Virus record (IMG/VR): IMGVR_UViG_3300037258_000514 | Coordinates: 96,001 to 160,000 of that record | From: a virus | Reading direction: 5' to 3' (one strand) | DNA length: 64,000 bases | Shown: positions 24,347-33,001 of the stretch, in pieces | Numbering within the stretch: position 1 is the first letter of the stretch | Layout of the letters: each line of letters opens with the position of its first letter | Notes under the pieces: model-generated | The model's input: the letters and a program-made list of their open reading frames with translations, nothing else | The model's database searches: none | Told to the model about the DNA's origin: nothing | Position numbers and translations under genes: made by a program

Positions 24347-24625
24347 CTAGTCATCTAACCTTATTTCACGCTCTTCGTTAACGTTTAGTTTTGGTCTAAG
24401 TTTTGCTTGGTGCACTCTCTCTTCTACTTCTGCGCGTTCTTTAGCAAGTTGCGCTTTAACCTGCTTCTCAATTTTTTCTTTCTTTTGTTTTTCTAATCGT
24501 AGATTACTTTCTCGCGCCCAGCGCGCCGTCGCTGTTCTACAATCTGAGCAGTAGCCCTCTTTGGATAGAAAGACAAGTGATTTAACTGTCTTCGCGCAAG
24601 AACCGCATCTAAGTGCTACTTTCAC
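24347..24625 (-). CDS. Zn-finger/coiled-coil protein ending REIRLDD
   Basis: CxxC...CxxC; shared C-terminal motif. Confidence 0.65.
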   Translation of the reverse strand: MKVALRCGSCAKTVKSLVFLSKEGYCSDCRTATARWARESNLRLEKQKKEKIEKQVKAQLAKERAEVEERVHQAKLRPKLNVNEEREIRLDD

Positions 24626-24717
24626 TAGTCCTCCAATCTGACTTCGCGTACGTCTAATATTTCTTTCTTCTTCTTTGGTTTTTCGTTCAGAAATTCTTTT
24701 CCTGTAAGCTTAGTCAT
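24625..24717 (-). CDS. 30-aa peptide ending REVRLED (not in ORF track)
   Basis: MTKLTGKEFLNEKPKKKKEILDVREVRLED; GAGGTG RBS; overlaps both neighbours. Confidence 0.65.
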   Translation of the reverse strand: MTKLTGKEFLNEKPKKKKEILDVREVRLED

Positions 24718-24991
24718 CAAAACGCACCTCACGCTCTGGTTTCTGCTCTTTCGAAACGTTTAGTTGCTCAAGTGTGCGGACTCTTGCCCTTAATCGTTCA
24801 ATATCTTTTTCTGTCTTTTTTACTTGCCATTGGGCTGTATCAAGTGCTCGTGCTAGTTTAACTACATTTGCTAGCAGGTTGTCATATTTTGATTTTACAT
24901 TCCTGTGTACTTTGTTATTACTATACGCCTGCAAGATTATTATTACTGTTAATCCCGCTAGCCAACCTCCGTAAGCAATATTGAAAGTCAT
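24710..24991 (-). CDS. membrane-anchored coiled-coil protein ending REVRFDD
   Basis: N-terminal hydrophobic helix, heptads, shared C-terminal motif. Confidence 0.65.
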   Translation of the reverse strand: MTFNIAYGGWLAGLTVIIILQAYSNNKVHRNVKSKYDNLLANVVKLARALDTAQWQVKKTEKDIERLRARVRTLEQLNVSKEQKPEREVRFDD

Positions 24992-25272
24992 TAATCTTCC
25001 AATCTTACAACACGCATTTCCTCGTCGGCAAGTTGCTTCTCATGCTTATCAACAGCGAACGAATATCCTTGTCCTGTTAATTGCAGTTGTTTTTGCAAGA
25101 TATGCTGACAGGCTTTCCTCTTTTCAAATTCTAACTTTTGGAATTTCCATGCAGGGCAAGTGCATCCAAACACTCCATCTTCGCGTTGACTTACTTTATA
25201 TTTCTTCCCTGAAGTACCAATTACATCCCAGTGTTTTACCCAACCATTCGTGTCTTGAGTCTTATTTTTCAA
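24991..25272 (-). CDS. SWIM zinc-finger protein ending RVVRLED
   Basis: CTCPAW...CQH SWIM pattern. Confidence 0.75.
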   Translation of the reverse strand: MKNKTQDTNGWVKHWDVIGTSGKKYKVSQREDGVFGCTCPAWKFQKLEFEKRKACQHILQKQLQLTGQGYSFAVDKHEKQLADEEMRVVRLED

Positions 25273-25544
25273 TTCATCACCTTGAAGAACAAATCCTGCA
25301 TTAAGACAGCGTTTTTTCGTACCGAGCGAGTTAAAGTGCGCGCTCCCTCTATATATCTGTAGATGTTATAGTCTTGAAACCCTTTTTCCTGGCATCTTCG
25401 CTTGCTTCTTCAGAAGGACGCGTTGCTTGGTAAGGCGCATCTGATTGCTTAGTAAGCATCATAATTTGATTAGAAGTAGACAATTTAAGTCTTCTGTTCC
25501 GCTCACTTCGGTGAACGGAACGCAGGACTTAACCTGCGTTTACC

Positions 25545-26492
25545 TTAGTCTTCGAATCTTACAGCGCGCATCGGAGCGTCAACCAAAGCCTTGTCCAATT
25601 CAGCTTTGATTTGTTCAAAGCCTGCTTGTACGCCTGCTCTCATTGACTCGTTAGTCCTTAACATATCAGGAGTAACGTCGTTGATAAGAGCCTTTGCTTG
25701 ATCAGCAAGTTTGTCTAAGTTCTCATTGCCTGTTAGATTTCTAACTTTGAGAACTTTCAGGAAGTCAGTCAGATTATCGAGCATCGAATCTCTGAAAACT
25801 TTCTTCTTTCCTTCTTCTGCTGGAGACAACCTTTCAACAAGATGTCCAACAAGTTCGTTCATTCCCGAGTAGAGGACTTGCTCTGCTACGTTACCCGCCT
25901 CTACCCATTTCTGAACCATCTTGTCAGCTTCTCTTGCAGCTACTTCTGCGCTGATCTCTTTTAGTTTCGCATCAACTGAGAACTGAACATATTGCCAACT
26001 AAAGTAAAAGCTAGCTCTATATGCTTCCTTTGTAAGGTAGTCATTGGGATCAAAAAGATCGCCTAGGGAGGCTTTTGCTTCTTCAAGATCGTGTTCGTAA
26101 GCATTAAAACAATTCTCAATCAATGGTAAACGTCCGGCTTGGTGTTGTGTAAGTTCGTTTTCTGTTTCGTTAAACAGGTCGATGGGCAACATATACATCG
26201 CTCTCTTTAACGGGAAGGGAATACAACGTCGAGAAAGGAACTCATCAATCTTAGCATCAAAGTTAAACAACTTCTTCAGTGCTTGTGAATTGAAGAGATC
26301 CTTTGAAACGTGAATGCGTTTCTTGTTCGCGTTCACTTGTATCTCAGAAGAGCTAACTGTCTTCGATAGGCTAGGCCACCTACGGCTAACCGTAAGGATA
26401 ACAGCTGAATCCATAATGTTGTTCTTGGGCTTAACTGTTGGGTTAACTTCGTTGTGTTGCGTTGAGGGCATTTCAATTACTTCTGCTGTCAT
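25545..26492 (-). CDS. DUF3150-like protein ending RAVRFED
   Basis: YMLP...F..AYE...A...LGDLFDPNDY pattern; context with AAA/DUF1257/DUF2997. Confidence 0.65.
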   Translation of the reverse strand: MTAEVIEMPSTQHNEVNPTVKPKNNIMDSAVILTVSRRWPSLSKTVSSSEIQVNANKKRIHVSKDLFNSQALKKLFNFDAKIDEFLSRRCIPFPLKRAMYMLPIDLFNETENELTQHQAGRLPLIENCFNAYEHDLEEAKASLGDLFDPNDYLTKEAYRASFYFSWQYVQFSVDAKLKEISAEVAAREADKMVQKWVEAGNVAEQVLYSGMNELVGHLVERLSPAEEGKKKVFRDSMLDNLTDFLKVLKVRNLTGNENLDKLADQAKALINDVTPDMLRTNESMRAGVQAGFEQIKAELDKALVDAPMRAVRFED

Positions 26493-28156: not shown

Positions 28157-28402
28157 TTACTTCCTCTCTCCTAACAGGTCTTGAACTTTGTCACACGGAA
28201 CTGTTGCTATACTCGTTACATACGACCATCCGTAAGTATAGGAGTTAATAGCGGCAAAACAAATACCAGTTCTTTGATCTTTGAAGTAGCTAATCGTTTG
28301 GCTTGGTTCTATCTTGTCAGGTTTATCGTTGGATTGACACGAAGTTAGAAATAGTGCAGCAGTAAGAACCAGTGTTTTAAGCAGGCGACTCTGTGTTTTC
28401 AT
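28157..28402 (-). CDS. putative lipoprotein
   Basis: Signal peptide with LTSC lipobox; AAGGAG RBS before MKTQS. Confidence 0.6.
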   Translation of the reverse strand: MKTQSRLLKTLVLTAALFLTSCQSNDKPDKIEPSQTISYFKDQRTGICFAAINSYTYGWSYVTSIATVPCDKVQDLLGERK

Positions 28403-28658
28403 ACTCTCCTTTAGAGAAAAGAACCCTCTCAATATATGAAACCTCTTCAGCTAAAGCATCAGCACGAAGCTTATGCTTTCCTAGCTTCGTACCATCTATC
28501 ATTGTTGCTTGCCACATGCCGTCTTCTGTTGGTTCGACATTACTAACACGACAAACGCTGGCTTGCCCCTCACGGAGCAAGTCAGCTAATCTGTCGTCGT
28601 ATATGAAGGCTATACGGCCTTCTTTACTGATTGAGAGTTTGAGTTTCTGGTCTGGCAT
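28377..28658 (-). CDS. conserved hypothetical partner of DUF2997/DUF1257
   Basis: GxIxFIYDD...RVSNVEP..DG.W.A...RADAL..EV pattern. Confidence 0.6.
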   Translation of the reverse strand: MPDQKLKLSISKEGRIAFIYDDRLADLLREGQASVCRVSNVEPTEDGMWQATMIDGTKLGKHKLRADALAEEVSYIERVLFSKGEYENTESPA

Positions 28659-28806
28659 ACATCTCCATTGTTGGTTCGTCGCTTGATACTTTGCCGAGTG
28701 CTTCTTCAAGATTGCGCGTTAACTCTTTGCAACTACTTCCTGAAACACCATTAACAAAGATGGAAACTTTACCATCTTTTGGAATTAACACTTTGATTGT
28801 TTGCAT
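28624..28806 (-). CDS. DUF2997-family protein
   Basis: IxxDGxVxxxVxGxxGxSCxxxTxxLEEALG..T.E.Y. Confidence 0.8.
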   Translation of the reverse strand: MQTIKVLIPKDGKVSIFVNGVSGSSCKELTRNLEEALGKVSSDEPTMEMYARPETQTLNQ

Positions 28807-28808
28807 AG

Positions 28809-29249
28809 TTAGTTCTTTACCGCCTCAAGCTCAATCGTTCCATCCTTGAGCGTAGTTGTTCGGATTTCGAATCCAAACGGAATGTTCTTCTTCGCAACTT
28901 CCAACTGATAGTTTTGGATCAGGTTAGAAGCATTGGAACCTACCTTTGCTTCCAAACCATATCCTCCACCGAAGAAGTCGTAAAGTAGAGTGTAGCCAGA
29001 CTTTGCAGTGCGGCTCTTTACAACACCAACTTCGTAAGCGTTTTTGTTTCCAGGCACACGAAGAGCATGATCACACTTACCAAGATCCTTCTCGCTAAAG
29101 CCGGCAGGGACCGGATAATCTCCTACGCTATGTCCCCACCACTTATATGAATGTTGATCACGAACAAATTCTAATCCAATATTCTTAGCTGCTTTTTCAA
29201 GACAACCTAAATCCTTAATTTCACAATCTATCGTTACAACGTGTGACAT
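28809..29249 (-). CDS. DUF1257-family (Ycf35-like) protein
   Basis: MSHVxTIxxEIKDLxxLxxA...YEVGV...YxLxYD...L.Q.Y. Confidence 0.8.
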   Translation of the reverse strand: MSHVVTIDCEIKDLGCLEKAAKNIGLEFVRDQHSYKWWGHSVGDYPVPAGFSEKDLGKCDHALRVPGNKNAYEVGVVKSRTAKSGYTLLYDFFGGGYGLEAKVGSNASNLIQNYQLEVAKKNIPFGFEIRTTTLKDGTIELEAVKN

Positions 29250-31441: not shown

Positions 31442-33001
31442 TCATGCTTCACCTACTTTCGTATCAAGATTTACAATTCGTCCTTGATCAGAATCTTGCG
31501 TTTGTTTTACGTTACTGAATGTGTAAACACCGCTCTTGCTAGCGGATAGATACTTTCGATCTGCCATTCTGCGCAGTTCTTCAATCCTCTTTGGATCAGC
31601 CCTTATGACTGGAACGATGTAACATGCTGCTTCCTCAAGCGTAATGCGTAATTGCCATGCCAACATGCAGCAATCGTGGATATTTCTTGGGGTCCATCCA
31701 TCCTCGTTAGACGGTAGTGGGTGGTCCAACTTATATTTAGTTTTCCATACGTCCCACACTGCCATTCTTTCTTCCCTTGTCGGCAAATCAAAGAAGAACG
31801 TTCCGAGATTAAATCTGTCCTTTAATTCTGACGACAAGGCACTCTCATCATTGCAAGTAGCAATCACAAGTGGCTTGCCTGACGCAACAATTGCAGCAAG
31901 AGCGTTCTTCAACTGCTGAGTTGACTGTCCAACAAACTGTCCCTTCAACTCAGAAATGTTATTGATAATAAGTGGAATCTTATACTCTCCAGCCAGCGCC
32001 TTCGAGATATAAGATTTGCTGCATCCCTGAATGCCTGCAAACCTAATCGCAAGCACTTCATTATCAGCCATCCAAGAAAGAATCTGTCCGTGCATTTCCT
32101 GCGATACTCCACTGCTATCACCTTTTGATCCTGCAAAGGCTTTCTCAAGTTCATCCCAGAATACAAGAACAGTTGGCGGATCTTGGCCGTTCATTACTTT
32201 TGTAAGATATTCCTTAATTACAGGAACACCTCTTACATCGTTGAATGATTCTTTCCCGCCCCAGATTCTCATTCCAGGGTTTTGTTCAATAGCCGCTTTC
32301 TTTCTATCCCATAACCGCTTTGAATCTATGCCTTCTTTGGTAAGTGACATAGCAACAACTTGTTCCGCCGAGAATGCTGCTAACCCTTTGATTGATCTAA
32401 CAGCACGCTTAATGTCGTCCTCTTCAGGCTTAACTTTCGCTTCTTTGTAAGTTGACTTACAAAGCTTCTCAACAATTACTTTTAAATCTTCTTCTGTTGG
32501 AAGAGGATCTTCAAGTACAAGCATATCCTGCTTTAGTTCAGCGGGCAGTTGAATGCCTGGTGTTAGGATAACCAACGTCTTGCGCGAAGATTTGAACTGA
32601 TCACGCAAATTCCAAATCGCTTGCCCAACGATCGCCTCTGCAAGATCGTGACTACCAATAAATCTGTGACCATTGTGGATGAAGATGATTGTCTTTCGAT
32701 CCACATGTGCAAACAATTTCATTGCGGCGGCAGGATCAGTAATCTGACTTGGGAGAATGTTCTCCCTCTGTGTTGCAACGCACAGTTGCTGAACCTGATC
32801 TTCGCCAGCTTTATTGACAGCTTTTAATCCCGATGAAATATCAAAGCTGATAAGTGGGGCACCCTCGTTGGCGGTGCCTTTTTCTTCTGTAATTGCGTTA
32901 ATTTGCTTAATTACGGAAGCAGGGTCAGGTGTTTGGATACACAGCAGAGGTACACCAGCGCGTAAAGCAGCTTTAAAGTCTTGTATCAACTTTGTTTCCA
33001 T
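31442..33001 (-). CDS. Ycf46-like AAA+ ATPase with permuted Walker motifs
   Basis: VLVFWDELEKAF (Walker B) before GIQGCSKS (Walker A); IATCN sensor-1; RF...FFFDLP. Confidence 0.85.
   Translation of the reverse strand: METKLIQDFKAALRAGVPLLCIQTPDPASVIKQINAITEEKGTANEGAPLISFDISSGLKAVNKAGEDQVQQLCVATQRENILPSQITDPAAAMKLFAHVDRKTIIFIHNGHRFIGSHDLAEAIVGQAIWNLRDQFKSSRKTLVILTPGIQLPAELKQDMLVLEDPLPTEEDLKVIVEKLCKSTYKEAKVKPEEDDIKRAVRSIKGLAAFSAEQVVAMSLTKEGIDSKRLWDRKKAAIEQNPGMRIWGGKESFNDVRGVPVIKEYLTKVMNGQDPPTVLVFWDELEKAFAGSKGDSSGVSQEMHGQILSWMADNEVLAIRFAGIQGCSKSYISKALAGEYKIPLIINNISELKGQFVGQSTQQLKNALAAIVASGKPLVIATCNDESALSSELKDRFNLGTFFFDLPTREERMAVWDVWKTKYKLDHPLPSNEDGWTPRNIHDCCMLAWQLRITLEEAACYIVPVIRADPKRIEELRRMADRKYLSASKSGVYTFSNVKQTQDSDQGRIVNLDTKVGEA

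Follow-up and report, generated by a model that had tools for sequence, protein, structure and literature searches.

A strictly C-terminal seven-residue tag on eight unrelated phage proteins, and its possible role as a docking peptide linked to an AAA ATPase module

Short tails that attach proteins to one partner are a basic form of protein wiring, as in proteasome activators, clamp clients and peroxisomal import. In phage genomes, most of whose small early proteins lack a known function, such tails are hardly ever annotated. The C-terminal tail of p97/Cdc48, which ends L-Y-G, is a docking peptide read by PUB and PUL cofactors. In phage T4, the C-terminal tails of gp43, gp33 and gp55 bind the gp45 sliding clamp. 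The XB tail of SspB and other tails dock on the N-domain of ClpX, and C-terminal degrons of the ssrA type end A-A. In the GQYL/HbYX systems of mycobacteria (Mpa, Bpa/PafE) and archaea (PAN, Cdc48), the carriers all plug into the same ring-shaped partner, the pockets of the 20S ring. Four C-terminal residues in common with Mpa led to the discovery of Bpa (PMC4254994). Here, we analyzed a stretch of viral DNA of 64,000 nucleotides (nt; the window, positions 96,001 to 160,000 of IMG/VR record IMGVR_UViG_3300037258_000514) in which five neighboring genes for unrelated proteins end in the same seven-residue tag, R-x-[IV]-R-[LF]-[ED]-D. The record to which the window belongs is one sequence of 175,952 bp with 40.6% G+C.

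In the window, all tagged open reading frames (ORFs) lie on the minus strand and are tightly packed between positions 24347 and 26492. Given in window coordinates, with lengths in amino acids (aa), they are:

25545..26492, minus strand: DUF3150-like protein, 315 aa; tag R-A-V-R-F-E-D, last seven codons 25548-25568

24991..25272, minus strand: SWIM-type zinc-finger protein, 93 aa; tag R-V-V-R-L-E-D, codons 24994-25014

24710..24991, minus strand: protein with an N-terminal hydrophobic segment and a coiled coil, 93 aa; tag R-E-V-R-F-D-D, codons 24713-24733

24625..24717, minus strand: mini-ORF that is mostly linker plus tag, 30 aa; tag R-E-V-R-L-E-D, codons 24628-24648

24347..24625, minus strand: Cys-x-x-Cys zinc-ribbon-like protein with a charged helix, 92 aa; tag R-E-I-R-L-D-D, codons 24350-24370

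When we translated the whole genome in six frames, we found eight matches to the tag pattern; all eight stand directly 5' of a stop codon and none is internal. Five are the copies inside the window and three lie outside it, at genome positions 46925, 47217 and 47810. In a control in which the genome was shuffled in 1-kb blocks, 0.07 matches are expected anywhere and 0.013 before a stop codon, as compared to the eight observed. We also built a position matrix from the eight tails, on which the tails themselves score 22.8 to 25.8 bits, the next-best C-terminus of the genome 4.6 bits and the best internal site 12.0 bits. The shuffle expectation and this gap in scores show that the sharing of the tag is real and far beyond chance, and chance was rejected as an explanation because 8/8 copies precede a stop where 0.013 are expected. 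An earlier note, made from the sequence of the window, had reported the common ending on five neighboring proteins. All five ORFs are present with those endings, the enrichment at C-termini extends to the whole genome with a wide gap to all other ends, and the sharing is larger than the note saw, with eight carriers instead of five. In all eight tails the final residues are Glu/Asp-Asp, and there is no Tyr in the tag.

The three carriers outside the window form a second cluster:

genome 46925-48034 (L006:4925-6034), minus strand: three consecutive tagged small genes, 74, 197 and 96 aa

This cluster stands between a Mre11/SbcD-like gene (331 aa) and a Rad50/SbcC-like gene (697 aa). Such genes are usually neighbors in phages, and here three tagged ORFans are inserted between them; we found no homologues of the 197-aa carrier. 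Also outside the window, the C-terminus that scored 4.6 bits belongs to a 220-aa Cys-rich protein (genome 52103-52765; L006:10103-10765, minus strand) that ends I-R-E-L-R-L-G-F, so that R-E-x-R-L is common to it and the tag and the ending is different.

To see at which level the tag is maintained, we compared the eight copies as DNA. Pairwise differences are 0.19, 0.09 and 0.65 at first, second and third codon positions, respectively; third positions are thus near saturation, and second positions never differ once the free second residue of the tag is excluded. Arg is encoded by CGC, CGT, AGA and AGG and Leu by TTA, TTG and CTC, so the copies switch between codon families (CGN and AGR for Arg, CTC and TTR for Leu), in line with the synonymous variation that had been noticed in the window. 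Nucleotide identity between copies is 69% in the tag, 35% in the 21 nt upstream and 29% in the 21 nt after the stop codon, which is the random level. A repeat finder returned only matches of 24-27 nt that are limited to the tag. A DNA repeat was therefore rejected, based on the third-position differences, the random flanks and the fact that similarity ends at the tag borders. Paralogy of the carriers was rejected as well, since no two of the eight bodies are similar once the tails are removed (BLASTP E>4).

We regard it as very improbable that the tag is a by-product at the level of nucleic acid or translation, such as a ribosome-binding site (RBS) or coupling element, a recombination boundary repeat or a nascent-peptide signal at termination. 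The close packing of the genes does lend itself to such an explanation: six of the eight copies overlap or abut the next start (TAATG, as at the stop of the SWIM gene, TAGTG, or ATGACTAA/ATGACTAG), some copies have GGAG-like purine runs, and two copies are 85% identical over 27 nt. An ATG is embedded in the GAT-GAC of the two variants that end D-D and of no others, and gene overlap therefore shapes some details of the tag. However, a by-product of RBS or coupling fails as an explanation because two of the eight copies have no coupled start. One is the copy at genome 46925, which has no adjacent start, and the other is that of the 315-aa protein, where two hairpins and about 270 nt follow the stop codon; the lack of a coupled downstream gene at this copy had been pointed out in the earlier note. 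The distance from tag to next start varies among the copies, and the same tail recurs where the genomic context of an orthologue is different, and at the ends of ATPases (see below); neither observation favors a by-product. Taken together, these data indicate that the tail is kept by selection on the protein, and explanations at the nucleic-acid or translation level have largely been refuted. The codon, flank and coupling data thus bear out the proposal of a protein-level peptide common to unrelated proteins, as opposed to a DNA repeat or RBS by-product.

In the 30-aa ORF, the ATG sits within the GAT-GAC-TAA of the upstream gene, and the last codons give a GGAGGA Shine-Dalgarno sequence for the GTG of the next gene. 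This ORF is probably translated, because the tag pattern is otherwise confined to true ORF ends, and we speculate that its 30-residue product could act as a competitor or modulator. For the coiled-coil protein (24710..24991) we found no true homologue among 1.84 billion representatives, which makes it an ORFan, and its one match is a weak one to PHROG 1397. The 92-aa zinc-ribbon-like protein has no Pfam or PHROG family. Downstream of the 315-aa gene (window 25273-25544, minus strand), two adjoining hairpins lie directly 3' of the stop codon, the first with an 8-bp stem and a 6-nt loop and the second with a stem of roughly 8 bp and a CGAA loop, without a T tract. A simple terminator scan did not flag this pair, and a 44-aa ORF is all that the ensuing stretch of about 270 nt contains.

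To ask whether the tail is conserved, we turned to orthologues of the carriers. The 315-aa protein has 35 relatives in a large protein collection, and the seven closest (47-64% identity) all stop at the same position, with R-x-[IV]-[RT]-[FL]-x-[DE] as their last residues. When 28 relatives were aligned, with identities as low as 24%, the first Arg of the tag did not vary at all, and a Pro two positions ahead of that Arg showed at least 90% conservation. A SWIM orthologue in the related locus L002 (51% core identity) ends R-Q-I-Y-L-E-D, and a second one (P0038) ends R-I-I-T-F-D-D-V. Orthologues of both the DUF3150-like and the SWIM protein thus keep the tail, where the earlier note had left conservation as a point on which its proposal could fall. 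These data identify the 315-aa DUF3150-like protein as a conserved core carrier of the tail. Two close relatives, L002 and L005, have two tagged genes each in the readable stretch; close relatives are represented by short contigs, and the count for L002 covers 21 kb. The DNA pattern of the commonest codon form of the tag had no match in a viral contig collection, and single-protein scans of viral contigs with the 315-aa protein and the Mre11-like neighbor found no close relatives. A cultured relative, Tunturiibacter phage Tunturi_3 (PP885686.1), carries the gene module that we describe next, with gp96 as its homologue of the DUF3150-like protein. In this phage, two neighboring small proteins, gp110 and gp109 (L001:1910-2265), both end A-K-[LI]-E-L-T-R-R-A; they may be paralogues or have another shared tail.

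Upstream of the tagged genes, the window encodes the following proteins:

31442..33001, minus strand: Ycf46-like AAA ATPase, 519 aa; Pfam AAA; tail at about 31445-31483 with G-R-I-V-N-L-D

28809..29249, minus strand: untagged conserved module protein, 146 aa; homologues in 10 related loci

28624..28806, minus strand: DUF2997 protein, 60 aa; untagged conserved module member; Pfam PF11211

27415..28101, minus strand: ORFan, 228 aa; possible ninth, degenerate tail R-L-I-T-V-E-G

A 110-aa protein at 28377-28709 also counts among the proteins of the module. The family labels first given to these proteins fared differently. Pfam confirmed DUF2997 for the 60-aa protein (PF11211, E=1e-16, 60.9 bits against a cut-off of 24.1), which is present in 11 related loci. 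A DUF1257 (PF06868) label was not confirmed: no protein of the genome matched at E<=1, and the 146-aa protein had no match at E<=0.1. For DUF3150 (PF11348), there was no match on the window protein; two of the 28 aligned relatives do match (best E=4.4e-5), and for this reason we use "DUF3150-like" as a distant label only. We found no homologues of the 228-aa protein in related loci.

We next looked at the wider family of the 315-aa protein. A profile of this family found relatives encoded in 282 viral contigs and 296 metagenome stretches, which fall into two subfamilies. In AAA-linked loci, a homologue of the AAA ATPase is encoded a few kb upstream and the DUF3150-like protein ends with a lineage-specific form of R-x-hydrophobic-x-hydrophobic-acid-acid. 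Among loci with a clear tail of the R-x-hydrophobic type, the AAA gene is present in 10/10 that extend 8 kb or more upstream. In contrast, it is nearby in 0/48 dereplicated loci whose DUF3150-like protein ends L-P-S-L-D-x, an ending found on that protein only. The tail is tied to a defined, widespread gene module, and it is ancestral to one family, the DUF3150-like proteins. In the AAA-less subfamily (L019-L086 and L107-L166, about 48 dereplicated loci), the end L-P-S-L-[DEG]-[ILMVW] is strongly conserved and has the look of a second docking tail, one that would serve some other partner.

The form of the tail changes between lineages, and within a lineage it is found on several proteins. In L009, D-E-E-V ends five ORFs: those of the ATPase, the DUF3150-like protein, a SWIM protein and a 164-aa protein, plus one short ORF. 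In L018, at least six proteins end R-x-[YF]-F-acid-acid, some with up to three residues after the motif, and the ATPase ends R-Q-Y-Q-E-S. One to three extra residues after the motif are also seen in some distant lineages. There are one or two extra carriers each in L010, L011, L013, L015, L021, L093 and L098. With a threshold that was set on other loci, we counted 19 extra carriers in 12/31 loci as compared to 2.9 expected. SWIM-type proteins are carriers in six lineages and have the local tail in L009, L015, L018 and L093. Neither Pfam nor PHROGs gave a function for the tagged proteins here or in L009, L010, L013, L015, L018 and L021.

In the same 31 loci, we found a resemblance between the tail of the ATPase and that of the DUF3150-like protein encoded in the same genome, which is clear in L017, L059, L013, L101, L103 and L106. 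To quantify this, we scored pairs of ATPase and DUF3150-like tails; pairs from the same genome have a mean of 16.6 and pairs from different genomes a mean of 12.9, and 0/100,000 permutations reach the observed sum (p about 1e-5). Among long same-strand ORFs, the ATPase tail has a mean fractional rank of 0.19 within its locus (Wilcoxon p=3e-6). The earlier note had named two weaker echoes of the tag, one near the end of the ATPase and one on the 228-aa protein. The ATPase echo is supported by the family comparison but not by this genome alone, where the tail ranks 20/35 and is not significant. The R-L-I-T-V-E-G of the 228-aa protein fits the family-wide pattern R-x-hydrophobic-x-hydrophobic-acid but scores low on the strict matrix, and this echo stays unproven.

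AlphaFold2 (AF2) models built with family alignments suggest that both of these tails are flexible. For the 315-aa protein, the body has a predicted local distance difference test score (pLDDT) of 84.7 and residues 307-315 are below 50; for the ATPase, the body has a pLDDT of 86.6 and residues 499-519 are below 50. Both tails are therefore predicted to be disordered. In a Foldseek search, the model of the 315-aa protein had no match in the PDB, and the ATPase model was nearest to the tandem-AAA unfoldases NVL, p97/Cdc48, Rix7 and Drg1 (E about 1e-13). By sequence, no solved relatives were found for the 146-aa protein or the ATPase. Over its full length, the ATPase model aligns best with tandem D1-D2 AAA proteins (NVL, p97, Rix7). 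This alignment suggests that the N-terminal half of the ATPase may be a degenerate first AAA domain and not a separate substrate-binding domain.

Our reading of these results, in which we place about even confidence, is that the tag may let its carriers dock, by their C-termini, on a single receptor that accompanies the AAA module. What suggests a short linear docking motif is that the tag is C-terminal, predicted to be disordered, selected at the protein level, conserved in orthologues and common to unrelated proteins, and that it changes in step between lineages. The receptor is placed in or next to the AAA module because R-x-hydrophobic tails accompany the AAA gene and the ATPase itself often carries the tail. 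From these observations we infer binding itself, the identity of the receptor and the fate of the clients. One common receptor would read the tail together with the free carboxyl end, and the shared tail would couple DUF3150-like, SWIM and phage-specific small proteins to one machine; in the wider family, the p97/Cdc48-like AAA ATPase itself would also be coupled in this way. The receptor would most likely be in, or always accompany, the module of AAA ATPase, DUF2997 protein and 146-aa protein, and candidates are the ATPase ring, the DUF2997 protein, the 146-aa protein or something that all of them bind. New clients could be recruited in evolution simply by gaining the tail. When the earlier note proposed a docking or degron peptide for one hub, it named a phage AAA/DUF1257/DUF2997 machine as a candidate for that hub. 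Protein-level sharing of the peptide stands, and the link to the machine is supported by the association and the within-genome matching of tails; the DUF1257 part is not confirmed by Pfam, and the peptide could serve docking or degradation.

Several results weigh against a docking peptide read by a module-borne receptor. Because the association with the AAA gene comes down to a single split between subfamilies, it represents few independent events. The other cluster of three tagged genes is 70 kb off, between the Mre11- and Rad50-like genes, which fits a DNA-metabolism hub equally. Most tagged proteins are ORFans, and conservation of the tail is assessable in two carriers only. In this phage the tail of the ATPase is weakly tag-like (score 10), and its G-R-I-V-N-L-D is followed by six more residues. 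No receptor was identified, and the AF2 monomer models give no hint of one, since neither tail was docked in cis, on its own body.

The disorder and the strictly C-terminal position of the tail would also suit a degron, gripped by the p97-like unfoldase of the phage (perhaps feeding a host protease) or by a host AAA+ protease, so that the carriers are removed or unfolded at a set time. The association with a classical-clade tandem-AAA unfoldase fold fits this idea, and most carriers are small early-region ORFans, the sort of protein suited to timed removal. We nevertheless consider a degron unlikely. A pure destruction signal would not be expected on the ATPase or on the conserved core proteins (DUF3150-like and SWIM), yet these carry a like tail in many lineages, and the phage record encodes no ClpP-like or proteasome/HslV-like protease. 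A search of the record for the Proteasome and CLP_protease families found neither, and a phage-encoded ClpP or proteasome was rejected as the hub. Like the XB and ssrA peptides, the phage tag is a short C-terminal peptide on a flexible tail that an AAA+ unfoldase could read. However, XB is found on an adaptor and not on many clients, and ssrA has a non-polar A-A end with a protease partner, whereas the phage tag has an acidic end and no such partner was seen.

Docking on a hub of the host, such as RNA polymerase or a platform for DNA replication or repair, with differences between lineages that reflect different hosts, seems to us quite doubtful. The tails do differ between phage lineages, three carriers lie between the Mre11- and Rad50-like genes, the cluster in the window adjoins a SNF2 helicase, and the large terminase of L018 has the local motif near its C-terminus. 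The tail type, however, tracks the AAA gene of the phage and not any visible host signal. The DNA-metabolism setting recalls the T4 clamp tails and the PIP and beta-clamp motifs, where unrelated phage proteins also use a similar short tail to reach one hub. Those motifs are hydrophobic or aromatic, in contrast to the Arg-x-aliphatic-Arg-Leu/Phe-acid-acid of the phage tail, which is tied to an AAA module and not to a clamp gene. Compared with consensus sequences from established knowledge, the tags do not match the beta-clamp/gp45 type (Q-L-[SD]-L-F-like) and are unlike the SSB tip and similar motifs.

A docking peptide tied to the AAA module also differs from the two ATPase-centered systems that it most resembles. 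As with GQYL/HbYX tails, unrelated proteins have one motif at the extreme C-terminus of a flexible tail; the tail of the ATPase resembles it across the 31 loci but only weakly in this phage. The phage tag lacks the penultimate Tyr, has an acidic end, is found on many more clients and changes quickly between lineages, and there is no chambered protease in the record; without the Tyr and without a Proteasome or CLP_protease family, it is an analogue and not a member of the HbYX/GQYL group. As in p97/Cdc48, the phage ATPase has a tandem-AAA fold and a disordered C-terminal tail in the models. In p97, however, only the ATPase has the tail, whereas here clients and partners have it too, and we detected no PUB or PUL domain. 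In the full-text literature, we found nothing on this tail or on the function of the module.

We also put forward, as a tentative possibility, a more specific form of the docking reading. The tail would be the common plug of a phage protein-remodeling machine, by which the ATPase, the DUF3150-like and SWIM proteins and a varying set of phage-specific small proteins fit into one pocket of a receptor encoded by the module, be it the small DUF2997 and 146-aa proteins or the ATPase ring; receptor and plug would co-evolve, and mini-peptides such as the 30-mer would tune occupancy. If so, exchangeable clients would gather on the Ycf46-type AAA module as their hub; this uncharacterized module is found widely in phages, mobile elements and cyanobacteria. 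The tail provides a testable handle on at least eight small phage proteins and on the AAA / DUF2997 / DUF3150-like module. Whatever binds the peptide would be the hub, and the lineage-specific, in-step change of the tails provides natural covariation data for finding this receptor.

Two related loci add observations on where the motif can stand. In L018, the large terminase (L018:786-2872, minus strand) has R-G-Y-F-D-D about 40 residues before its acidic C-terminus, and P-R-A-Y-F-E is found close to the N-terminus of a 194-aa protein encoded next to it. In some lineages, then, the motif is not confined to the extreme end. In L009, a viral contig of high G+C, the fifth ORF that ends D-E-E-V (L009:12852-13235, plus strand) has no obvious start codon. 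It is in frame with an upstream 82-aa ORF, with a single TGA between them, and read-through or recoding of this TGA would add a tagged extension of 44 residues to the 82-aa ORF.

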